Origin: an uncultured Bacteroidales bacterium
Lineage (GTDB): Bacteria > Bacteroidota > Bacteroidia > Bacteroidales > UBA4417
DNA length: 64,000 nucleotides
Direction: 5' to 3'
Assembly (NCBI GenBank): GCA_903879715.1
Contig: CAIRMR010000189.1
Location: 30,613 to 94,612, forward strand
Shown here in pieces: positions 47,980-62,651 of the stretch; positions within the stretch are counted from its first letter, which is position 1; each line of letters opens with the position of its first letter. The notes beneath the pieces were generated by a model, which saw nothing but the letters and a program-made list of their open reading frames with translations, was not told where the DNA came from and made no database searches. Position numbers and translations under genes: made by a program.

Positions 47980-48810
47980 CTACTTTATTGCTTTCTCATT
48001 ATAATTTATCCGAACGCCATACAGATCAATCAGCAGGTTCAGTCCCAGCATCCCATTCGGATTTTCAGTTCCTTTAAGTTTACCGGAAAGAGCATCTTTG
48101 CTAATTGTAGCCTCATCATCCACGCGTTGCTTCGTTTCTACATTCGTGCCAAAATAATGTCCCGGATAAAGGGTTTTTATTCCGGATTTCTGCATAATTG
48201 CGCTCATTTTATGGCACGTAGCTAGGAGAGTTGAGAAGTCTTCGGCCAATAAAAGATTCCCTGAGCCGAATGAATCTCCACTGAATCCGTATCCTGCGGC
48301 TTTGTCGATATATGTGGTGGAACCCGGAGTGTGAGCCGGTGTAAAGACCACTTCAATCGTTCGACTACCCAGGTCGAACAGTTGCCCGTCTTCCAGATAT
48401 TTTACTTTCCCTTTGTAGTCCGGCATAAATTGAGGAATATTCACTGTATCGGCCGCAGCAATAAAAATTTCCGGAAAAACATCAATCGATGCCCCGGTGT
48501 GATCCGGATGAACATGAGTAGCTACAAGAGTTACCGGCTTTTTTGTAATAGTTGCCACAATCTTGTCCAGGTCCTTAATATTGGTTCCGGCATCGATCAA
48601 TAAGGCTTCTTTGCTTCCTTCAACCAGGTAAATGCTTTCATTAAACATCACATGACCTGTGCCTACCCAGGTATGATCATCAATCTGGTGAAAGACTACA
48701 TCGTCATTTTTAAAAACTTCTTTCCCCGCGATTTCCGTTGCTGGCATCTGGGCAAAGGTGGATGAACAGAAAATGATTAAAATTACTGTTGCCAAAAATA
48801 GCTTGTTCAT
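47980..48810 (-). CDS. secreted MBL-fold metallo-hydrolase
   Basis: Signal peptide, motif ATHVHPDHTG (HxHxDH), and downstream H/D ligands. Confidence 0.85.
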   Translation of the reverse strand: MNKLFLATVILIIFCSSTFAQMPATEIAGKEVFKNDDVVFHQIDDHTWVGTGHVMFNESIYLVEGSKEALLIDAGTNIKDLDKIVATITKKPVTLVATHVHPDHTGASIDVFPEIFIAAADTVNIPQFMPDYKGKVKYLEDGQLFDLGSRTIEVVFTPAHTPGSTTYIDKAAGYGFSGDSFGSGNLLLAEDFSTLLATCHKMSAIMQKSGIKTLYPGHYFGTNVETKQRVDDEATISKDALSGKLKGTENPNGMLGLNLLIDLYGVRINYNEKAIK

Positions 48811-49945: not shown

Positions 49946-50073
49946 TTTCCCGGATTTTATTTTACAGATTTGAATTATATTTCTATTTGTGGATGCTTAT
50001 TTTCAAGTAATAACCGTTAACAGAATGCATCGGTGAGTATTGATAAGATTCTATTATCGGGCATTAAAAGGGA

Positions 50074-51030
50074 TTATAGTTTGGCCGCTATAAATTCTTC
50101 AAGTTTTATTATGTCAAAAGTAAAGCTGCGTATTCCTTCCGAAAATTTTTCAACCGCCATTGCGTCTTCATTCTGCATCCAGCGGAAGTTCTTGGCATCA
50201 AGATGTATTTTCTGAACGTCAGTCGCTTTTGATTTCTCCGGATCAAGTTTTCGGACCAGCACATCCTGGTTATTCTCCAGTTCCGAAAGGAGATTTGGCG
50301 GTATAGTTAACAAATCGCAACCTGCAAGTTCAATGATCTGGCCTATATTCCGGAAACTGGCACCCATTACTTCGGTACGGTAACCAAATTTCTTGTAATA
50401 ATTATATATATAATTCACAAATTGTATTCCCGGATCTTCGTCCGGCGGAATGAAATCGACCCCGCGATCTTTTTTATGCCAATCGTAGATTCTACCAACA
50501 AAGGGCGAAATAATCTGAACCTTAGCTTCTGCACCGGCAATGGCCTGGGCTATGCTGAAAAGCAGAGTCAGGTTACAGTGAATGCCTTCCTTTTCCAGTT
50601 GTTCCGCAGCTTTGATGCCTTCCCAGCTACTGGTCAGCTTAATTAATATTTTGCAACGCGGGATTCCTTTATCCTCAAATAGCTTTATTATTTTCCGTGC
50701 CTTCGTCAGGCTACCATGCATATCGTACGAAAGCCTTGCATCCACTGCGATGGCAACTCTTCGTGGAACGATTTTCAATATTTCAATCCCAAAATTAACC
50801 GCAAGCATATCCATACTCTCAGCCAGCCTTGATTCAAAATTATCTCCTTTTTTTCTTCCATATTCTAAAGCGGCATCCACCAGGCCAGCATACTTCTTTT
50901 TCTGCGCTGCAGCAAATATCAGGGTAGGATTGGTTGTGCCATCAACTGGTTTGAATTGAGTTATGATATCAAAATCAACGCTATCAGCATCCACCTGAGT
51001 ATATTGCTTAAGTTGTTCCAGAAGGTTCAT
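50074..51030 (-). CDS. transaldolase paralog with the catalytic Glu replaced (STE to AIA)
   Basis: About 75% identical by eye to the neighbour. Asp, Lys (ILIKLTSSW), Asn, Ser and Arg are retained, but the sequence reads RRVAIAVDARLS. The codons gcc atc gca are read directly at 50746-50754. Confidence 0.9.
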   Translation of the reverse strand: MNLLEQLKQYTQVDADSVDFDIITQFKPVDGTTNPTLIFAAAQKKKYAGLVDAALEYGRKKGDNFESRLAESMDMLAVNFGIEILKIVPRRVAIAVDARLSYDMHGSLTKARKIIKLFEDKGIPRCKILIKLTSSWEGIKAAEQLEKEGIHCNLTLLFSIAQAIAGAEAKVQIISPFVGRIYDWHKKDRGVDFIPPDEDPGIQFVNYIYNYYKKFGYRTEVMGASFRNIGQIIELAGCDLLTIPPNLLSELENNQDVLVRKLDPEKSKATDVQKIHLDAKNFRWMQNEDAMAVEKFSEGIRSFTFDIIKLEEFIAAKL

Positions 51031-56748: not shown

Positions 56749-57618
56749 GTGATAAACAAATTTAAATATATTACTGCATCAGAGGAAGATAAAGAATGGG
56801 GGCTACATCTAAATGTTGTAGGAATAGCCGGCATTGAAAAAAGTTCCGACTACCCGCCTGCCGGCCACCCGTCAGGATATACATTCGACTGGAGGGCAGG
56901 CAGGACACTTCATGAATATCAGATAAATTACATCACCGAAGGATTTGGAATATTTGAAAACAAACATGGCTCATTCCGGATAACACCCGGAACTATAATT
57001 ATTCTTTTCCCTGGCGAATGGCATAGGTACCGACCCTTAAAAAAAACAGGATGGAAAGAACATTTCATTGGTTTTGATGGGTCGTTGGCTTCTACACTTC
57101 TAAAGGCTGATTTTTTCAGGAAAGAAAGTCCGATAATTAAAATTAATTTTCGGAAGGAACTACATGATCTGTTTTTAATGATCTTTGAAAATGCCTTTTC
57201 TGAAAAAGCAGGCTACCAGCAAATTTGTACAGGATTAATCATAACATACATCGGACAAATTATTTCAATAATTAAGAACAAGGAATTCGAGGGCAAGGAT
57301 ATTGAAAAGCGAATTCAACAGGCATGTCTGATTCTACGCGACAACCTGGAATCGAATATTGATGCAAGGGAGCTGGCTGGAGGATTAAATACAGGGTATT
57401 CCTATTTCAGGAATATGTTCAAAAAATATACCGGGATGTCGCCTGTGCAATATCATTTGCAACTCAGGATTAAAAAAGCCGAAGATTTGCTGCTTATGAC
57501 AAAGAAGCCTGTTAAAGAGATTGCATATGAACTGGGATTTCAATCCATATATTATTTTTCGCGTTTATTTAAAAATAAAACAGGAAAAAATCCGAGTGAT
57601 TTCAGGATGTTGCTGTAG
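56749..57618 (+). CDS. AraC-family regulator with cupin-type sugar-binding N-domain
   Basis: GTG start. N-terminal cupin (FGIFENKHGSFRITPGTIIILFPGEWHRY) and C-terminal HTH (IAYELGFQSIYYFSRLFKNKTGKNPSDFR). It is divergent from the kinase operon. Confidence 0.85.
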   Translation: MINKFKYITASEEDKEWGLHLNVVGIAGIEKSSDYPPAGHPSGYTFDWRAGRTLHEYQINYITEGFGIFENKHGSFRITPGTIIILFPGEWHRYRPLKKTGWKEHFIGFDGSLASTLLKADFFRKESPIIKINFRKELHDLFLMIFENAFSEKAGYQQICTGLIITYIGQIISIIKNKEFEGKDIEKRIQQACLILRDNLESNIDARELAGGLNTGYSYFRNMFKKYTGMSPVQYHLQLRIKKAEDLLLMTKKPVKEIAYELGFQSIYYFSRLFKNKTGKNPSDFRMLL

Positions 57619-57631
57619 GACCAACAGTTGC

Positions 57632-58669
57632 CTACTCAAAATCAATTATAGCCTTCATCACGCCATCCCGGTAATCAGCTACCAGTTCAAAGGCTTTTTG
57701 TGTTTCATCAAAACTAAACCGGTGAGTTAGCATCAAACTAACATCAACTGTTCTGTTCAACATCATTCCCAAAGCAGATTCCACACAGCCGACTTGTCGC
57801 CTGACATTGGTTATGGTTATTTCTTTCCTCCTCAAAGAGTCAACATCGAATGACCATCTGCTGAATTCAGGGATTCCAATAATCATCAGTTTCCCACCTG
57901 GTTTGAGAATTTCAATGGCCTGGTCAATTGCTTCCTGCTTACCGCAACATTCAAAGACCGCATCAAGAAGAAGAGGCTCTTTTTCTTTAATGAAACCAAC
58001 AATATCGTCATTTTCAGGATTCCCAATCCAGCTTGCGCCGCATTTTCCCGCAATTTCAAGACGTTTATTGATTTTATCGGTTACATATACTTTTGCGGCT
58101 CCCTGTGCCAGCGACGGTAGGAGAACGCTCATGCCGATGGGACCAAATCCAAGGATTCCAATTTTTGCGTCTTTCATCGGAATGCTTTGCTTCACGGCAT
58201 AAACTCCTATTGCTAACGGTTCCGAAATGGCAGCCTGGTCATAACTAAGTTTATCTGAAATCGGGACGCAGCTGGATTCAGGCATTACAATGTACTCACT
58301 TATGCAGCCTTCGGCTTGCCCCGGGCAACCCAGGAATTTTAATTTCCGGCAGGTATGTTCCCGACCTGTGAGGCACTGATCACATTCGCCGCAAGGCATA
58401 GCAGGTTCTATTGCAATACGTTGACCAACTTTAACGCGTATTACGGATTTCCCAACTCCAACAACCTGCCCCGCTCCTTCATGACCAAGCGCGAAAGGAA
58501 ACTGAACCACCTGGCTCCCGATTTTTCCCTCTTTATAATAATGAACATCGGAACCGCAAACACCTACAGTTTTCATTTTTATCAGAACATCCGTGTCGTT
58601 TATGATCGCCGGGTCCGGGACTTCAACTATACTGATCTGCTGTATAGCAGTGAGCTGCATTGCTTTCAT
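57632..58669 (-). CDS. Zn-dependent polyol/secondary-alcohol dehydrogenase (sorbitol/butanediol-DH-like MDR)
   Basis: GVCGSDVHY, GHEGAG, a structural-Zn loop CGECDQCLTGREHTC, and a GFGPIG Rossmann motif. Confidence 0.85.
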   Translation of the reverse strand: MKAMQLTAIQQISIVEVPDPAIINDTDVLIKMKTVGVCGSDVHYYKEGKIGSQVVQFPFALGHEGAGQVVGVGKSVIRVKVGQRIAIEPAMPCGECDQCLTGREHTCRKLKFLGCPGQAEGCISEYIVMPESSCVPISDKLSYDQAAISEPLAIGVYAVKQSIPMKDAKIGILGFGPIGMSVLLPSLAQGAAKVYVTDKINKRLEIAGKCGASWIGNPENDDIVGFIKEKEPLLLDAVFECCGKQEAIDQAIEILKPGGKLMIIGIPEFSRWSFDVDSLRRKEITITNVRRQVGCVESALGMMLNRTVDVSLMLTHRFSFDETQKAFELVADYRDGVMKAIIDFE

Positions 58670-58807: not shown

Positions 58808-61276
58808 TTATACACCTTTTTTATTCCTTTGTTTAATGCTCTCATCTCCAAAGTCGGTACCTGAAATATGGCCTTTTAATGGTACGATTTTCTGGTCGAT
58901 GGCATCGATTATCCATTCCGCCTGAGGGAAATAATAGTTTTCCAACTCGTAAGCAGGAACAATCCAGTTGCGTGAACCCACAACAATAGGAGCTGCATCC
59001 AGGTCATCGAAAGCAAGTTCGGAAATGGTGTGCGCCATTTCTTTCAGGAATGATCCACGGGAATTTGCATCGCTGGTTAAAACGATACGACCGGTTTTCT
59101 GCACAGATTCTATCACCAGGTCGTAGTTAAAAGGAACCAGGCTCCTTACATCAATAACTTCGGCCGACATACCATATTTCTCTTTCAGGATATCAGCGGC
59201 TTCGAGCGCACGATAAAGGGTAGCACCGATGGAAAGAATTGTAATGTCATCACCTTTGCGCTTGATATCAGGTTCTCCGAAAGGAATTTCATAGTAACCT
59301 TCGGGCACTCCGCCTTCATGAAATAATTCAGCCACGTCATAAATCCGCTGGCTTTCGAAAAATATAACCGGGTCGGTTCCCTGCAAAGCTGTATTCATAA
59401 GACCTTTGGCATCGTAAGGTGTTGCCGGGAAAGCAATTTTTAATCCTGGAATATGAGCAACCAGTGATGTCCAGTCCTGCGAATGCTGCGCACCGTATTT
59501 CGATCCTACCGAAACCCTGATTACCACAGGCATTTTGATAATATTCCCGCTCATTGCCTGCCATTTTGGAAGCTGGTTAAAGACTTCATCGCCGCAACGT
59601 CCCAGGAAATCGCAGTACATAATTTCGGCAATTACTCTTCCTCCGGCCATTCCGTAACCAATTGCGGTTCCAACAATTGCGCCTTCAGCGATAGGCGAAT
59701 TAAATAGCCTGTGGTATGGCAAAGCTTCGGTTAATCCGCGATAAACTGCAAATGCTCCGCCCCAGTCACGGTTTTCCTCGCCATAGGCTACTAGTGTGGG
59801 ATCTTTGTAAAACCTGTCGATAATGGCTTCGAAAAGAGCATCTTTCAACTGGTAGGTTTTTAATTTCGAATGAGGTTTTCCTTCTTTGTCAAGCCCGAAT
59901 CTCTCTTTTTTCTTTAATTGCTGTACCCTTGGATTTTCTTCCATTGTCATAAGAGTGTCAGGGGTACGGTCTTCCATTTTATCGACAGAACTATCAGAGA
60001 ATATCATATTTCCGATTGTTTCAGGATAAGCTAGGAGGTCCATACGTGGAGAAACGCTATCGTCGATTGCCTTTTTCAACGCTTTTACGATGCTTTCCAC
60101 AACCACTAATTTTATGGCTTCTATTTCCTCTTTAGTCGCAATGCCCGAACGGATCAAATCTGCCGGGTAAGCAAGCAGGGAATCCTGTTTTTCCCATGCG
60201 TCTATTTCTTCCCTGCTGCGGTACGATGATGCATCGGAAGGGGAGTGGCCTGTAAAACGATACGTGAGTGTATCGAGTAAAATCGGACCTTTTTTCTCTT
60301 CAATAATTTTCTTTTTGCGGCGGAACGCGTCAATAACAGCCAGTGGATTGTATCCGTCAACCCGTTCGGCATGCATCATTTCAGGATTTACACCGGCACC
60401 AACGCGGGCAAGCATATCATAACCCATAGTTTCACCACGGGTTTGGCCACCCATGCCATACTGGTTGTTCATAAAGTTGAAAATAATCGGCAATCCGCCT
60501 CTGTATGGTTCTTCCCATAAGGTGCGGAACTGATCCATAGTCGCGAAGCTGATACCTTCCCAAACGGGACCGCAAGCCATAGATGCATCGCCAATATTCG
60601 CTACGATAATCCCCGGCTTGGCATTCACTTTTTTGAATAATGCCGCGCCAACCGAAATATCGCCTGAACCGCCTACTATTGCATTATTCGGATATACTCC
60701 GAAAGGTGTAAAAAACGCGTGCATCGAGCCACCTAAGCCTTTGTTGAATCCAGTTTTCCTCGCAAAAATCTCTGCCAGGGTTCCGTATAAAAGGAAGTCG
60801 GTTGCAAGCTCTTTTGTGTCGCCTTTAAATCCTTTTTCGACTACCCGCAAGGTTTCGCCATCGAAATGAACCTCCATGATATCCATCAATGCTTTTTCAC
60901 CAAGTTGATGAATCGCGGATAAGCCTTTTGCGAGTATCTCGCCATGCGAGCGGTGCGATCCAAAAATATAATCATCCACGCTGAGCGTATATGCCATTCC
61001 TACTGCAGCTGCTTCCTGTCCCATCGAAAGGTGAGCAGGACCAGGATGGTTATATGGAATCCCCTGGTATTCACCTGCTGTTTTAATCAGGTTCAGCATG
61101 GTTTCGAACTCCCGGATCAAAAACATATCGCGGAATATCCTGAGAAAATCTTCTTTTGAATAGATTTTCTTTTCCTCTTTTAATGTCTTGCTGTATTGGT
61201 TTACCGGAATTGAACCAAAGTGAATTTCACCTTTTTTCCTGGCATCTGTCGGATCTATAAATTGTGATTTAGGCAT
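58808..61276 (-). CDS. fused E1 alpha-beta component of a 2-oxoacid/acetoin-type dehydrogenase complex (TPP-dependent)
   Basis: 822 aa. The alpha part has [27 protein letters not shown] and IGDAS..NN, which is the pyruvate/acetoin-type signature. A ~100-aa linker follows. The beta part has [27 protein letters not shown]. Confidence 0.9.
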
Positions 61277-61358: not shown

Positions 61359-62651
61359 CTAAACAAGATCGTTGCTTAAGTTTTCAACCTGATTCCTTAT
61401 TTCTTTAAGAAATGCGGAAGCCGGGGCGCCGTCGAGTGCACGGTGATCGTATGTCAGCGACAGACCGATAACCGGAATAAAAGCTATGATTCCGTTTCCG
61501 ATATCAGCAGGACGATACGTGATGGTATTCACTCCAAGAATACCCGACTGTGGCAGGTTGATAACAGGAGTAAATAATTCAACACCATATGAACCTAAGT
61601 TCGATATTGTAAAACTGGCGTTTTCACTACGTAAGAGTTCAGGATCAACATTTCCTTTACGGCAATTTTCGGCCATTGCTTTCATTTGGGTAGCCAAAGC
61701 TTTTAGTTTCAGTTCATCAGCATTACGGATAACAGGAACCATCAGACCACGATCTGTATCAACAGCAATTCCAAGGTGAACTTTTTTAAATGTTTTGGTC
61801 CTGTCGCCAAGAAAATGTGAGTTTATGGCATGCATTTTTTCCAGTGCGCGAACGGTTGCGTAACAAACCAGGTCATTCAACGTAATATTAGGTATTTCGC
61901 CTTTTTCGGCCCTTACCTTATATATTGCACGAAGTTCGAGCAGTTTACGTGCATCGGCACTGGTATGGTGGGTAAGTTGAGCTGAATTTTGAAGGGAAGC
62001 ATGGATACCTTTTGCAATCAGTTTACGCATATTGCTCAGAGGGCTTTCAACGTAATCATCATTTGAAGTAATCGGTATAAAAGCCGGAATACTTGCAACT
62101 TGCACAGGTTTTACGGTGTTAACAGCGACAGGTTCAGCTTTCGGAACAATTACGGCAGCAGATTCAACATCCCTGACGATTATCCTTCCATTTGGACCGC
62201 TGCCTTGTAATCCCTGTAAAGAAATGCCATTTGCCTGGGCCATACACCTGGCGCGTGGCGAAATCCTGATTTTTGAATCAGATGGCGTATCAACAGTCAC
62301 AACATTTTGGCCTGGTGCAGGAAGATTCCCGGAATTTGTAGTTTCATCAGAAGGCGAAAGTTCTGCAACAGCAGGAGTTGAAGCAGAGGAACGAAAAGTT
62401 TCAACAGATTCACCTGCCTTGCCGATTACTGCAACATTAGCCAGAACAGGCACTTCATCGCCTTCCTCGTAAAAGATTTCCAGCAAAATGCCTGATACTT
62501 TGGCAATTTCATCGAAAGAAGCTTTATCTGTTTCATAGCAAAATAAAACATCCCCTTCTTCGACGATTTCACCCTTTTTCTTTTCCCACCTTGTAATGAT
62601 GCAGGATTCGACCGATTGCCCGAGCCGGGGCATAAATACAGCTTCAGCCAT
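61359..62651 (-). CDS. dihydrolipoamide acyltransferase (E2): lipoyl, E3-binding and catalytic domains
   Basis: Lipoyl domain with ETDKA, PSBD ISPRARCMAQANGISL..GSGPNGRI, and catalytic YDHRALDG. Confidence 0.9.
   Translation of the reverse strand: MAEAVFMPRLGQSVESCIITRWEKKKGEIVEEGDVLFCYETDKASFDEIAKVSGILLEIFYEEGDEVPVLANVAVIGKAGESVETFRSSASTPAVAELSPSDETTNSGNLPAPGQNVVTVDTPSDSKIRISPRARCMAQANGISLQGLQGSGPNGRIIVRDVESAAVIVPKAEPVAVNTVKPVQVASIPAFIPITSNDDYVESPLSNMRKLIAKGIHASLQNSAQLTHHTSADARKLLELRAIYKVRAEKGEIPNITLNDLVCYATVRALEKMHAINSHFLGDRTKTFKKVHLGIAVDTDRGLMVPVIRNADELKLKALATQMKAMAENCRKGNVDPELLRSENASFTISNLGSYGVELFTPVINLPQSGILGVNTITYRPADIGNGIIAFIPVIGLSLTYDHRALDGAPASAFLKEIRNQVENLSNDLV

Follow-up and report, generated by a model that had tools for sequence, protein, structure and literature searches.

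A tandem TalB-type paralog with alanine in place of the catalytic glutamate in a Bacteroidales sugar operon: a retained and probably re-specialised protein

Transaldolase (TAL) and fructose-6-phosphate aldolase (FSA), two textbook examples of class I aldolase-type enzymes, are workhorses of biocatalytic C–C bond formation, and what sets transferase apart from aldolase chemistry in them is whether the acid/base residue is Glu or Tyr. In the Escherichia coli transaldolase TalB, Lys132 makes the imine, Asp17 acts on the C4 hydroxyl, and Glu96 moves protons together with a water that is held by Asn35 and Thr156; the C1 hydroxyl of the donor is bound by Ser176 and Asn154, and the phosphate by Arg181, Ser226 and Arg228. 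This mechanism is said to go back to Jia 1996, Jia 1997 and Schörken 2001. The title of a later report, Sautner 2015, is consistent with an acid/base residue that separates transferase (TAL) from aldolase (FSA). The Glu (TAL) versus Tyr (FSA) split is consistent with the PDB entries 4RZ5, 4RZ6 and 9QPK. Among class I aldolases, the residue responsible for carbinolamine dehydration differs and moves, being Glu, Tyr, or an Asp at another site (PMC2728841). Here we describe two TalB-type genes that stand in tandem in a 64,000-nucleotide stretch from an uncultured Bacteroidales bacterium (assembly GCA_903879715.1, contig CAIRMR010000189.1, positions 30,613 to 94,612), which as a whole is called the window below. 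One of them, the variant, encodes Ala where TalB has Glu96, and it is probably a re-specialised enzyme rather than a broken one. The other is referred to as the canonical paralog.

The two genes are intact 318-aa open reading frames (ORFs) on the minus strand, arranged head-to-tail and 128 bp apart (Table 1). Their products are 78% identical in a gap-free alignment, the genes share 75% of their nucleotides, and the 236 nucleotide and 71 residue differences are spread over the whole gene. Residues are numbered as in E. coli TalB unless they are said to be the variant's own (the variant number is the TalB number minus one at 15, 17, 19, 94–96, 132, 134 and 136), and this numbering agrees with the PDB titles of the mutants D17A, N35A, E96A, T156A, S176A, F178Y and R181E. 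The motif region of the variant reads PRRVAIAVDARLS, including VAIAVDARLS, where the canonical copy and all other homologs inspected carry the Ser-Thr-Glu (STE) form; the codon gca at 50748..50746 encodes the Ala at position 96. Its N-terminus reads QVDADSVD, as against QVVADSGD in the canonical copy. A first-pass annotation of this DNA had reported the tandem 318-aa copies, the codons gcc-atc-gca for Ala-Ile-Ala (AIA) and the VDADSVD segment, and direct reading of the sequence confirmed all of this in every detail.

By sequence the variant belongs to transaldolase subfamily I. It matches PF00923 with 269 bits, a family that the canonical copy matches too, and it scores 444.6 bits against TIGR00874, the NCBIfam transaldolase equivalog, for which the canonical copy scores 483.1 bits and the curated cutoff is 396.2. 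The AlphaFold2 (AF2) model of the variant, with a predicted local distance difference test score (pLDDT) of 98.1, is a TalB-type (beta/alpha)8 barrel with the C-terminal helix, and Foldseek TM-scores of this model against solved TalB-type transaldolases from E. coli, yeast, mouse and human range from 0.95 to 0.99. Alignment to E. coli TalB demonstrated that 11 of the 12 known active-site residues are kept, namely D17, T33, N35, K132, N154, T156, S176, F178, R181, S226 and R228. This set comprises the Schiff-base K132 with D17, the water-positioning and donor-binding N35, T156, N154 and S176, and the phosphate site R181, S226 and R228, in agreement with the earlier statement that the Schiff-base Lys and the Asp, Asn, Ser, Arg and Phe residues are retained. 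The twelfth, the catalytic Glu96 that marks the subfamily, is Ala, and the changes at and near these sites are V15D, G19V, S94A, T95I and E96A. We file the variant as TalB-type by its sequence and predicted fold, and not as a confirmed transaldolase.

The substitution is exceedingly rare. Among 5.8 billion protein clusters, the variant's best non-self match has 79% identity and an STE motif, and the same motif is present in 119 of the 119 other closest homologs. Scans of genomes and metagenomes, from which 165 loci were fetched, found Glu at position 96 in all 163 other TalB genes and AIA only on the window organism's own contigs. At greater distance, Glu96 is present in 124 of the roughly 136 alignable sequences among 150 representatives of 50%-identity clusters; the full-length exceptions (P0148, P0162, P0201, P0217 and P0232) all have Gln, and none has Ala. 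Asp15 was found in none of these 150 representatives and in none of the 119 other close homologs, and Thr134 in none of the 150. A search with a 40-aa peptide around AIA, which was apparently length-matched, returned three short fragments, all of them STE, and was of no informative value. Judged from the homolog and locus comparisons, the variant is a singleton lineage with no AIA clade, and the change from STE to AIA lies far beyond chance variation. The first-pass annotation had proposed an alignment to look for an AIA-type clade that co-occurs with this locus. When it was run, such a clade was refuted, and TalB is single-copy in the closest relative that shares the operon.

Selection on the variant was assessed from substitution rates and neutral simulations. 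Between the variant and its paralog the proportion of synonymous differences (pS) is 0.70 and the synonymous divergence (dS) about 2.0, which is saturated, while the nonsynonymous divergence (dN) is 0.135, giving a dN/dS ratio (omega) of 0.066. The same comparison between the canonical paralog and the single TalB of a related contig, L084, gave a dS of 1.1, a dN of 0.023 and an omega of 0.021. A three-point decomposition assigned to the variant branch a dN of about 0.12, a dS of about 1.3 and an omega of about 0.1, and uncorrected proportions, a deliberate overestimate, put this branch omega at no more than about 0.28. In neutral simulations at 0.2 substitutions per site, 0.1% of genes were free of stop codons and 0.6% retained all 11 active-site residues; at 0.4 substitutions per site and above, 0 of 5000 were stop-free and 0 of 5000 kept the 11 residues. 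The variant itself retains 124 of the 144 columns that are invariant across 119 canonical sequences. Taken together, the low omega, the retained residues and the simulations reject a pseudogene or decaying duplicate (the ORF is open, pairwise omega is 0.07 and branch omega about 0.1, and 11 of 12 active-site residues are kept), and they make a merely crippled relic less likely. The decaying, crippled copy that the first-pass annotation had listed as an option is contradicted by the same evidence, including the saturated synonymous sites at a dN of 0.135 and the 124 retained columns. The pattern of substitution indicates that the variant is a functional protein under purifying selection.

The origin of the pair can be followed in related genomes. 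A close relative encodes P0019, a TalB that shares 96% identity with the canonical paralog, and its version of the same operon contains only one TalB gene, in the order zinc-dependent alcohol dehydrogenase (Zn-ADH), AraC, FGGY kinase, PHP-like protein, class II aldolase/short-chain dehydrogenase (SDR) fusion, FSA-type aldolase and TalB. On contig L084 the FSA gene is likewise followed by one TalB, and among 85 loci compared, two TalB sites were found in the window organism only. The canonical paralog is 95–96.5% identical to orthologs of related genomes and 89% identical to the TalB of a Lentimicrobiaceae metagenome-assembled genome, which assigns the organism to this family or its vicinity; among the sampled genomes, the variant survives in one lineage related to Lentimicrobiaceae (Bacteroidales). 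It is about equally distant from L084 and from another related sequence, L085, with a dS of about 1.6 to each. In a neighbour-joining tree the paralog falls within a clade of 65 members and the variant branches off outside it, on a branch of 0.20 as compared to 0.02 for the paralog; in 200 bootstraps it was sister to a clade of 63–66 members in about 25% of the replicates and to a single taxon in 35%. The comparison of the copies rejects recent gene conversion, as identity in 60-nucleotide windows is 67–85% and there are no identical tracts. A recent foreign origin of the variant is not indicated, since its GC content (41.9%) matches that of the paralog (42.3%) and of the window (40.8%). By these measures the duplication is not recent, and the history that needs the fewest assumptions is a tandem duplication of old date, since lost or still unsampled in sister species.

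In order to locate the changes in the fold, barrel-lining positions were defined as strand residues of the model that are in register with the known inward-pointing catalytic residues (n = 27). The variant has 31 residues that are unseen in 118 other closest homologs, as compared to two in the paralog. Such unprecedented states occupy 7 of the 27 lining positions (TalB 15, 19, 94, 96, 134, 136 and 174) and 24 of the 291 positions elsewhere (Fisher p = 0.009), and among canonical sequences 4 of 192 private states fall on the lining. Counted by columns that are invariant in the clade, 7 of 23 lining columns have changed versus 13 of 121 others (p = 0.02, or p = 0.047 without position 96). Strand assignment places 15/17, 94/96, 132/134/136 and 174/176/178 in one inward-facing register. 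Position 15 precedes Asp17 by two residues (strand beta-1) and position 134 follows Lys132 by two (strand beta-4), so both are predicted to point into the barrel. Gly19Val, Thr136Ser and Leu174Ile also line the barrel, and Ser37Thr, two residues past Asn35, is unprecedented as well. The polar inventory of the lining is balanced: the carboxylate of E96 and the hydroxyl of S94 are lost, and V15D and A134T bring in a carboxylate and a hydroxyl. A strictly kept catalytic set together with a newly arisen, buried and family-unique Asp argues for function. Of the options that the first-pass annotation had named, a re-specialised enzyme is the best supported, in view of the new states on the barrel lining and the charge-conserving polar swap.

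The explanation that we put forward, and whose chances we judge to be even, is that the variant is a selected and remodelled Schiff-base sugar-phosphate enzyme with a rewired proton relay that serves the pathway of its operon. A TalB gene closing an AraC-controlled sugar-catabolic operon would have been duplicated in tandem long ago, and purifying selection would have kept the variant as a folded, class I (Schiff-base lysine) binder of sugar phosphates. In such a protein Lys132 would still form the imine, Asp17 would still handle the C4 hydroxyl, and Arg181, Ser226 and Arg228 would still hold the phosphate. The proton transfers of Glu96 and its water would pass to another network, for which Asp15 and Thr134, working via water, are the most plausible candidates, and the altered relay would change the rate, partitioning or specificity of the enzyme. 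The variant would then serve the operon's pathway and the canonical TalB would do the housekeeping. The comparisons above show the sequence changes themselves, the selection, the singleton status, the operon setting and the clustering of changes on the lining; from these we infer continued catalysis, the replacement of Glu96 by Asp15 and Thr134, and any new specificity. An unphosphorylated or deoxy donor, as the first-pass annotation had suggested, is not favoured, because the phosphate site (R181, S226 and R228) and the C1-hydroxyl binders (S176 and N154) are intact. A bolder form of the proposal, which we offer tentatively and consider doubtful, is that the transaldolase/FSA superfamily has a third natural acid/base architecture, represented by the variant, in which buried Asp15, Thr134 and water lead to altered partitioning or donor preference (for example through a longer-lived enamine), dedicated to a Bacteroidales sugar pathway that uses an FSA-type aldolase and a PHP-family phosphoesterase. 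Glu93 of NgTAL (PMC8964421) was considered and set aside, as it is a different, non-catalytic residue that is irrelevant to Glu96.

Several points weigh against the proposal of a re-specialised enzyme. When all differences between the copies are counted, 7 of 27 lining positions and 64 of 291 others differ (p = 0.40), so that the overall rates are about equal, and the lining pattern is also what one would see if part of the active site had selectively lost its constraint. The nearness of Asp15 and Thr134 to Lys132 and to the catalytic water is predicted purely by beta-strand register and barrel-layer reasoning. The E96A substitution in E. coli TalB is reported (Schörken et al. 2001) mainly to lower kcat, and hence the simplest expectation for the variant would be a poor transaldolase. 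As bootstrapping does not settle where the variant attaches, one has to rely on saturated dS for how old the duplication is. Finally, one variant sequence is known, which gives no population or ortholog series for site-specific selection.

The first rival explanation is a partly disabled transaldolase with no new role, kept for residual activity, dosage or co-transcription, whose lining reflects relaxed constraint after the loss of E96. We regard it as improbable. In its favour, E96A is reported to be activity-lowering, by kinetics from Schörken 2001. The crystal structure of this mutant has been solved (PDB 1I2O), the omega of the variant branch is some 4–5 times that of canonical TalB, the lining has changed at the protein-wide rate, and close relatives manage with a single TalB. 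However, saturated synonymous divergence with an omega of about 0.1 implies long retention, whereas a weak copy that is redundant would normally disappear, and the single-copy relatives may be examples of this. The expectation that a neutral gene keeps 11 of 12 catalytic and binding residues is near zero, and a family-unique, buried Asp at a hydrophobic core position is hard to obtain by relaxation alone.

A protein without turnover is an alternative to which we give the same low weight: the variant could be a binder or sensor of sugar phosphates, or a partner that dimerises with the canonical TalB or associates with FSA. This would account for an acid/base residue that is gone while the phosphate- and sugar-binding residues stay, and unique changes of the variant do cluster in the C-terminal helix (L295F, K301S, E304F, L306I and K311E; R300 is kept). 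In TalB this helix contributes to the dimer contact around R300. A pure binder, however, would have no obvious need for Lys132, Asp17, Asn35 and Thr156 together. Nor is there a sign of co-adaptation in the canonical paralog, which has only two private residues (positions 10 and 116), both outside the C-terminal helix, and is 96% identical to orthologs from single-copy genomes. The heteromer subunit that the first-pass annotation had listed among its options thus has no positive support. The active sites of TalB are independent within the dimer and monomeric R300 variants are active, so a heterodimer would have no evident catalytic rationale; PDB entry 9QPK carries R300E. An artefact, in which sequencing error, strain collapse or chimeric assembly made the three codons or the tandem arrangement, was considered because the source assembly is of metagenome type and a single sequence version exists. 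The first-pass annotation had itself named an assembly error in the three codons as an outcome that would undo its reading. Three further assemblies, produced by different assemblers (ENA ERZ27313537, Logan ERR4222574 and ENA ERZ18659942), contain the gene without a single nucleotide difference, and two of them also cross the junctions into neighbouring genes. The exact protein is recorded on seven contigs, independent contigs show the FSA gene followed by the variant and then by canonical TalB, and short contigs cross both the FSA–variant and the variant–TalB junction. The 236 nucleotide and 71 residue differences, moreover, extend beyond the three codons. The artefact reading is effectively refuted, and its residual probability is negligible.

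The variant lies in an operon whose first gene encodes a sugar kinase (Table 1). The first-pass annotation had noted neither this operon context nor the FSA-type gene, whose end lies 48 bp before the start of the variant. The overall interpretation given in that annotation was supported in part. The 221-aa neighbour has the FSA signature, and one operon here encodes three acid/base configurations of one superfamily: Gln/Tyr in the FSA-type protein, Ala/Phe in the variant and Glu/Phe in the canonical copy. The 128-bp spacer shows a weak alignment with the sequence that precedes the one TalB on contig L084, and no terminator-like site was found on its minus strand. A scan for sigma-70 promoters and terminators gave counts at or below shuffle expectation, the sigma-70 model not being applicable to Bacteroidota promoters. 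This arrangement is consistent with co-transcription of the variant with the sugar operon and with a canonical TalB that keeps its ancestral upstream region.

Table 1 Features of the tandem TalB-type pair and its operon (positions in the window)
Feature	Position	Strand	Basis or remark
Variant TalB-type gene (P0001), 318 aa	50074..51030	-	ORF and translation, PF00923, TIGR00874; upstream copy in the direction of transcription
Canonical TalB paralog (P0012), 318 aa	48989..49945	-	TIGR00874; downstream copy
Spacer between variant and canonical TalB, 128 bp	49946..50073	-	
Codons gcc-atc-gca, variant's own Ala93-Ile94-Ala95 (TalB S94A, T95I, E96A)	50746..50754	-	Direct read
Codons for variant's own Asp14-Ala15-Asp16-Ser17-Val18 (VDADSVD)	50977..50991	-	Asp14 = V15D; Asp16 = retained D17; Val18 = G19V
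Codons aag-ctg-acc-agt-agc, variant's own Lys131, Leu, Thr133, Ser, Ser135	50626..50640	-	Lys131 = retained Schiff-base K132; Thr133 = A134T; Ser135 = T136S
FSA-type aldolase, 221 aa	51079..51744	-	Gln for the TAL Glu, Tyr in PYVNR; alignment to PDB 3r8r (transaldolase) and 9v4b (FSA)
Class II aldolase-like/short-chain dehydrogenase fusion, 656 aa	51808..53778	-	RhaD/COG3347-like, below all NCBIfam cutoffs
PHP-family phosphoesterase-like fold protein, 419 aa	53873..55132	-	Structure matches
FGGY-family sugar kinase, 456 aa	55233..56603	-	First operon gene
AraC-family regulator	56749..57618	+	Divergent from the kinase operon

The AF2 model of the 419-aa protein, which is annotated as hypothetical, has a pLDDT of 77 and shows a PHP-like fold into which a long helical segment is inserted; Foldseek matched it to RNase AM (9etk), 2yb1 and 3e0f. 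Homologs of this protein number in the thousands in Bacteroidales and Prolixibacteraceae (e.g. P0285-P0403; L014:3527-4702). In the cluster of Proteiniphilum sp. X52 (L014, 1..13600) its homolog stands with an E3 fragment, a fused E1 alpha/beta, the aldolase/SDR fusion, a Zn-ADH-like protein, a 432-aa double class II aldolase and TalB, and the opposite strand encodes an apiosidase-like glycoside hydrolase and UxuA. That the PHP-like gene recurs beside a fused E1, TalB and the class II aldolase/SDR fusion points to a so far uncharacterised pathway of sugar phosphates, and the neighbours in Proteiniphilum hint at a link to the catabolism of plant-wall sugars, possibly of apiose type. A sulfoquinovose (sulfo-TAL) or a rhamnose pathway is unsupported, as no RhaA-type or sulfoquinovose isomerase was found and the 419-aa protein is PHP phosphoesterase-like.

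Beyond the AraC-family regulator, the window encodes a Zn-dependent dehydrogenase (57632..58669), an 822-aa fused E1 alpha+beta, that is, a thiamine pyrophosphate-dependent dehydrogenase (58808..61276, minus strand), an E2 acyltransferase (61359..62651, minus strand) and an adjoining GntR regulator. The E1/E2 set looks like an acetoin or 2-oxoacid dehydrogenase module. The fused E1 may share the pathway of the PHP-like protein and the aldolase/SDR fusion, because it directly adjoins those genes in Proteiniphilum. Directly downstream of the canonical TalB, a metallo-beta-lactamase-fold protein with an apparent N-terminal signal sequence is encoded (47980..48810, minus strand). Its position is taken by an AAA_14/DUF4143 gene on the opposite strand in the P0019 relative and by a SIS-domain gene in L084.

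The variant amounts to a clean natural experiment on which residue acts as acid/base in a thoroughly studied family of enzymes. Its significance is limited by its being a single-lineage singleton from an uncultured lineage. If the proposal of a re-specialised enzyme is true, a selected natural protein that has neither the Glu nor the Tyr, and that holds a unique buried Asp, would be a ready test of how mobile this catalytic role is, and it could supply a new scaffold or specificity. Annotation pipelines will name the variant a plain transaldolase since it scores above the TIGR00874 cutoff, and it thus exemplifies how an equivalog call can mask the loss of a catalytic residue. The operon with its kinase, PHP-like phosphoesterase, aldolase/SDR fusion, FSA and TalB recurs in Bacteroidales, and the paralog may be a handle on its sugar pathway.

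Among the described systems, E. coli TalB (TIGR00874; PDB 1ONR and 1UCW) is the closest. The variant has the same length and fold (TM-score 0.96) at about 50% identity and shares with it Lys132, Asp17, Asn35, Thr156, Asn154, Ser176, Phe178 and Arg181/Ser226/Arg228, but differs by Ala96, Ala94, Ile95, the unique Asp15 and Thr134, Gly19Val, Thr136Ser and Leu174Ile. FSA (E. coli FsaA, PDB 1L6W, and the gene upstream of the variant) belongs to the same PF00923 superfamily and also lacks the Glu, having Gln59. However, FSA is a 220-aa, decamer-type protein with Tyr131 as acid/base, whereas the variant, TalB-type and 318 aa long, has Ala and Phe where FSA has Gln and Tyr. It shows neither the Gln and Tyr nor the chain of about 220 aa and decamer type that define FSA, and, as it keeps Phe178, it has neither a TAL-type Glu nor an FSA-type Tyr as acid/base residue.

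The natural Gln96 TalB-type proteins (P0148, P0162, P0201, P0217 and P0232) are full-length and, like the variant, lack Glu96. They differ from it in being 40–45% identical, in having Gln rather than Ala, and in lacking Asp15 and Thr134. P0217 and P0232 combine Gln96 with Tyr178, the same pair as the engineered FSA-like E96Q/F178Y (PDB 4RZ6), and two of the natural Gln96 proteins have an altered phosphate site (R181G/L and S226Y) with Phe178. Judged from these residues, the natural Gln96 proteins may be aldolases on a TalB scaffold. LsrF and the archaeal class I aldolases place the proton-transfer residue elsewhere (PMC2728841); they are of different families and thus offer the variant an analogy only. 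In the engineered TalB proteins E96A (1I2O), E96Q (4RZ5) and E96Q/F178Y (4RZ6 and 9QPK) the carboxylate was removed at the very position where the variant has lost it, and the fold tolerates the change. These are single or double laboratory mutants, whereas the variant is a natural and, by its pattern of divergence, selected protein that carries some 30 further unprecedented substitutions.

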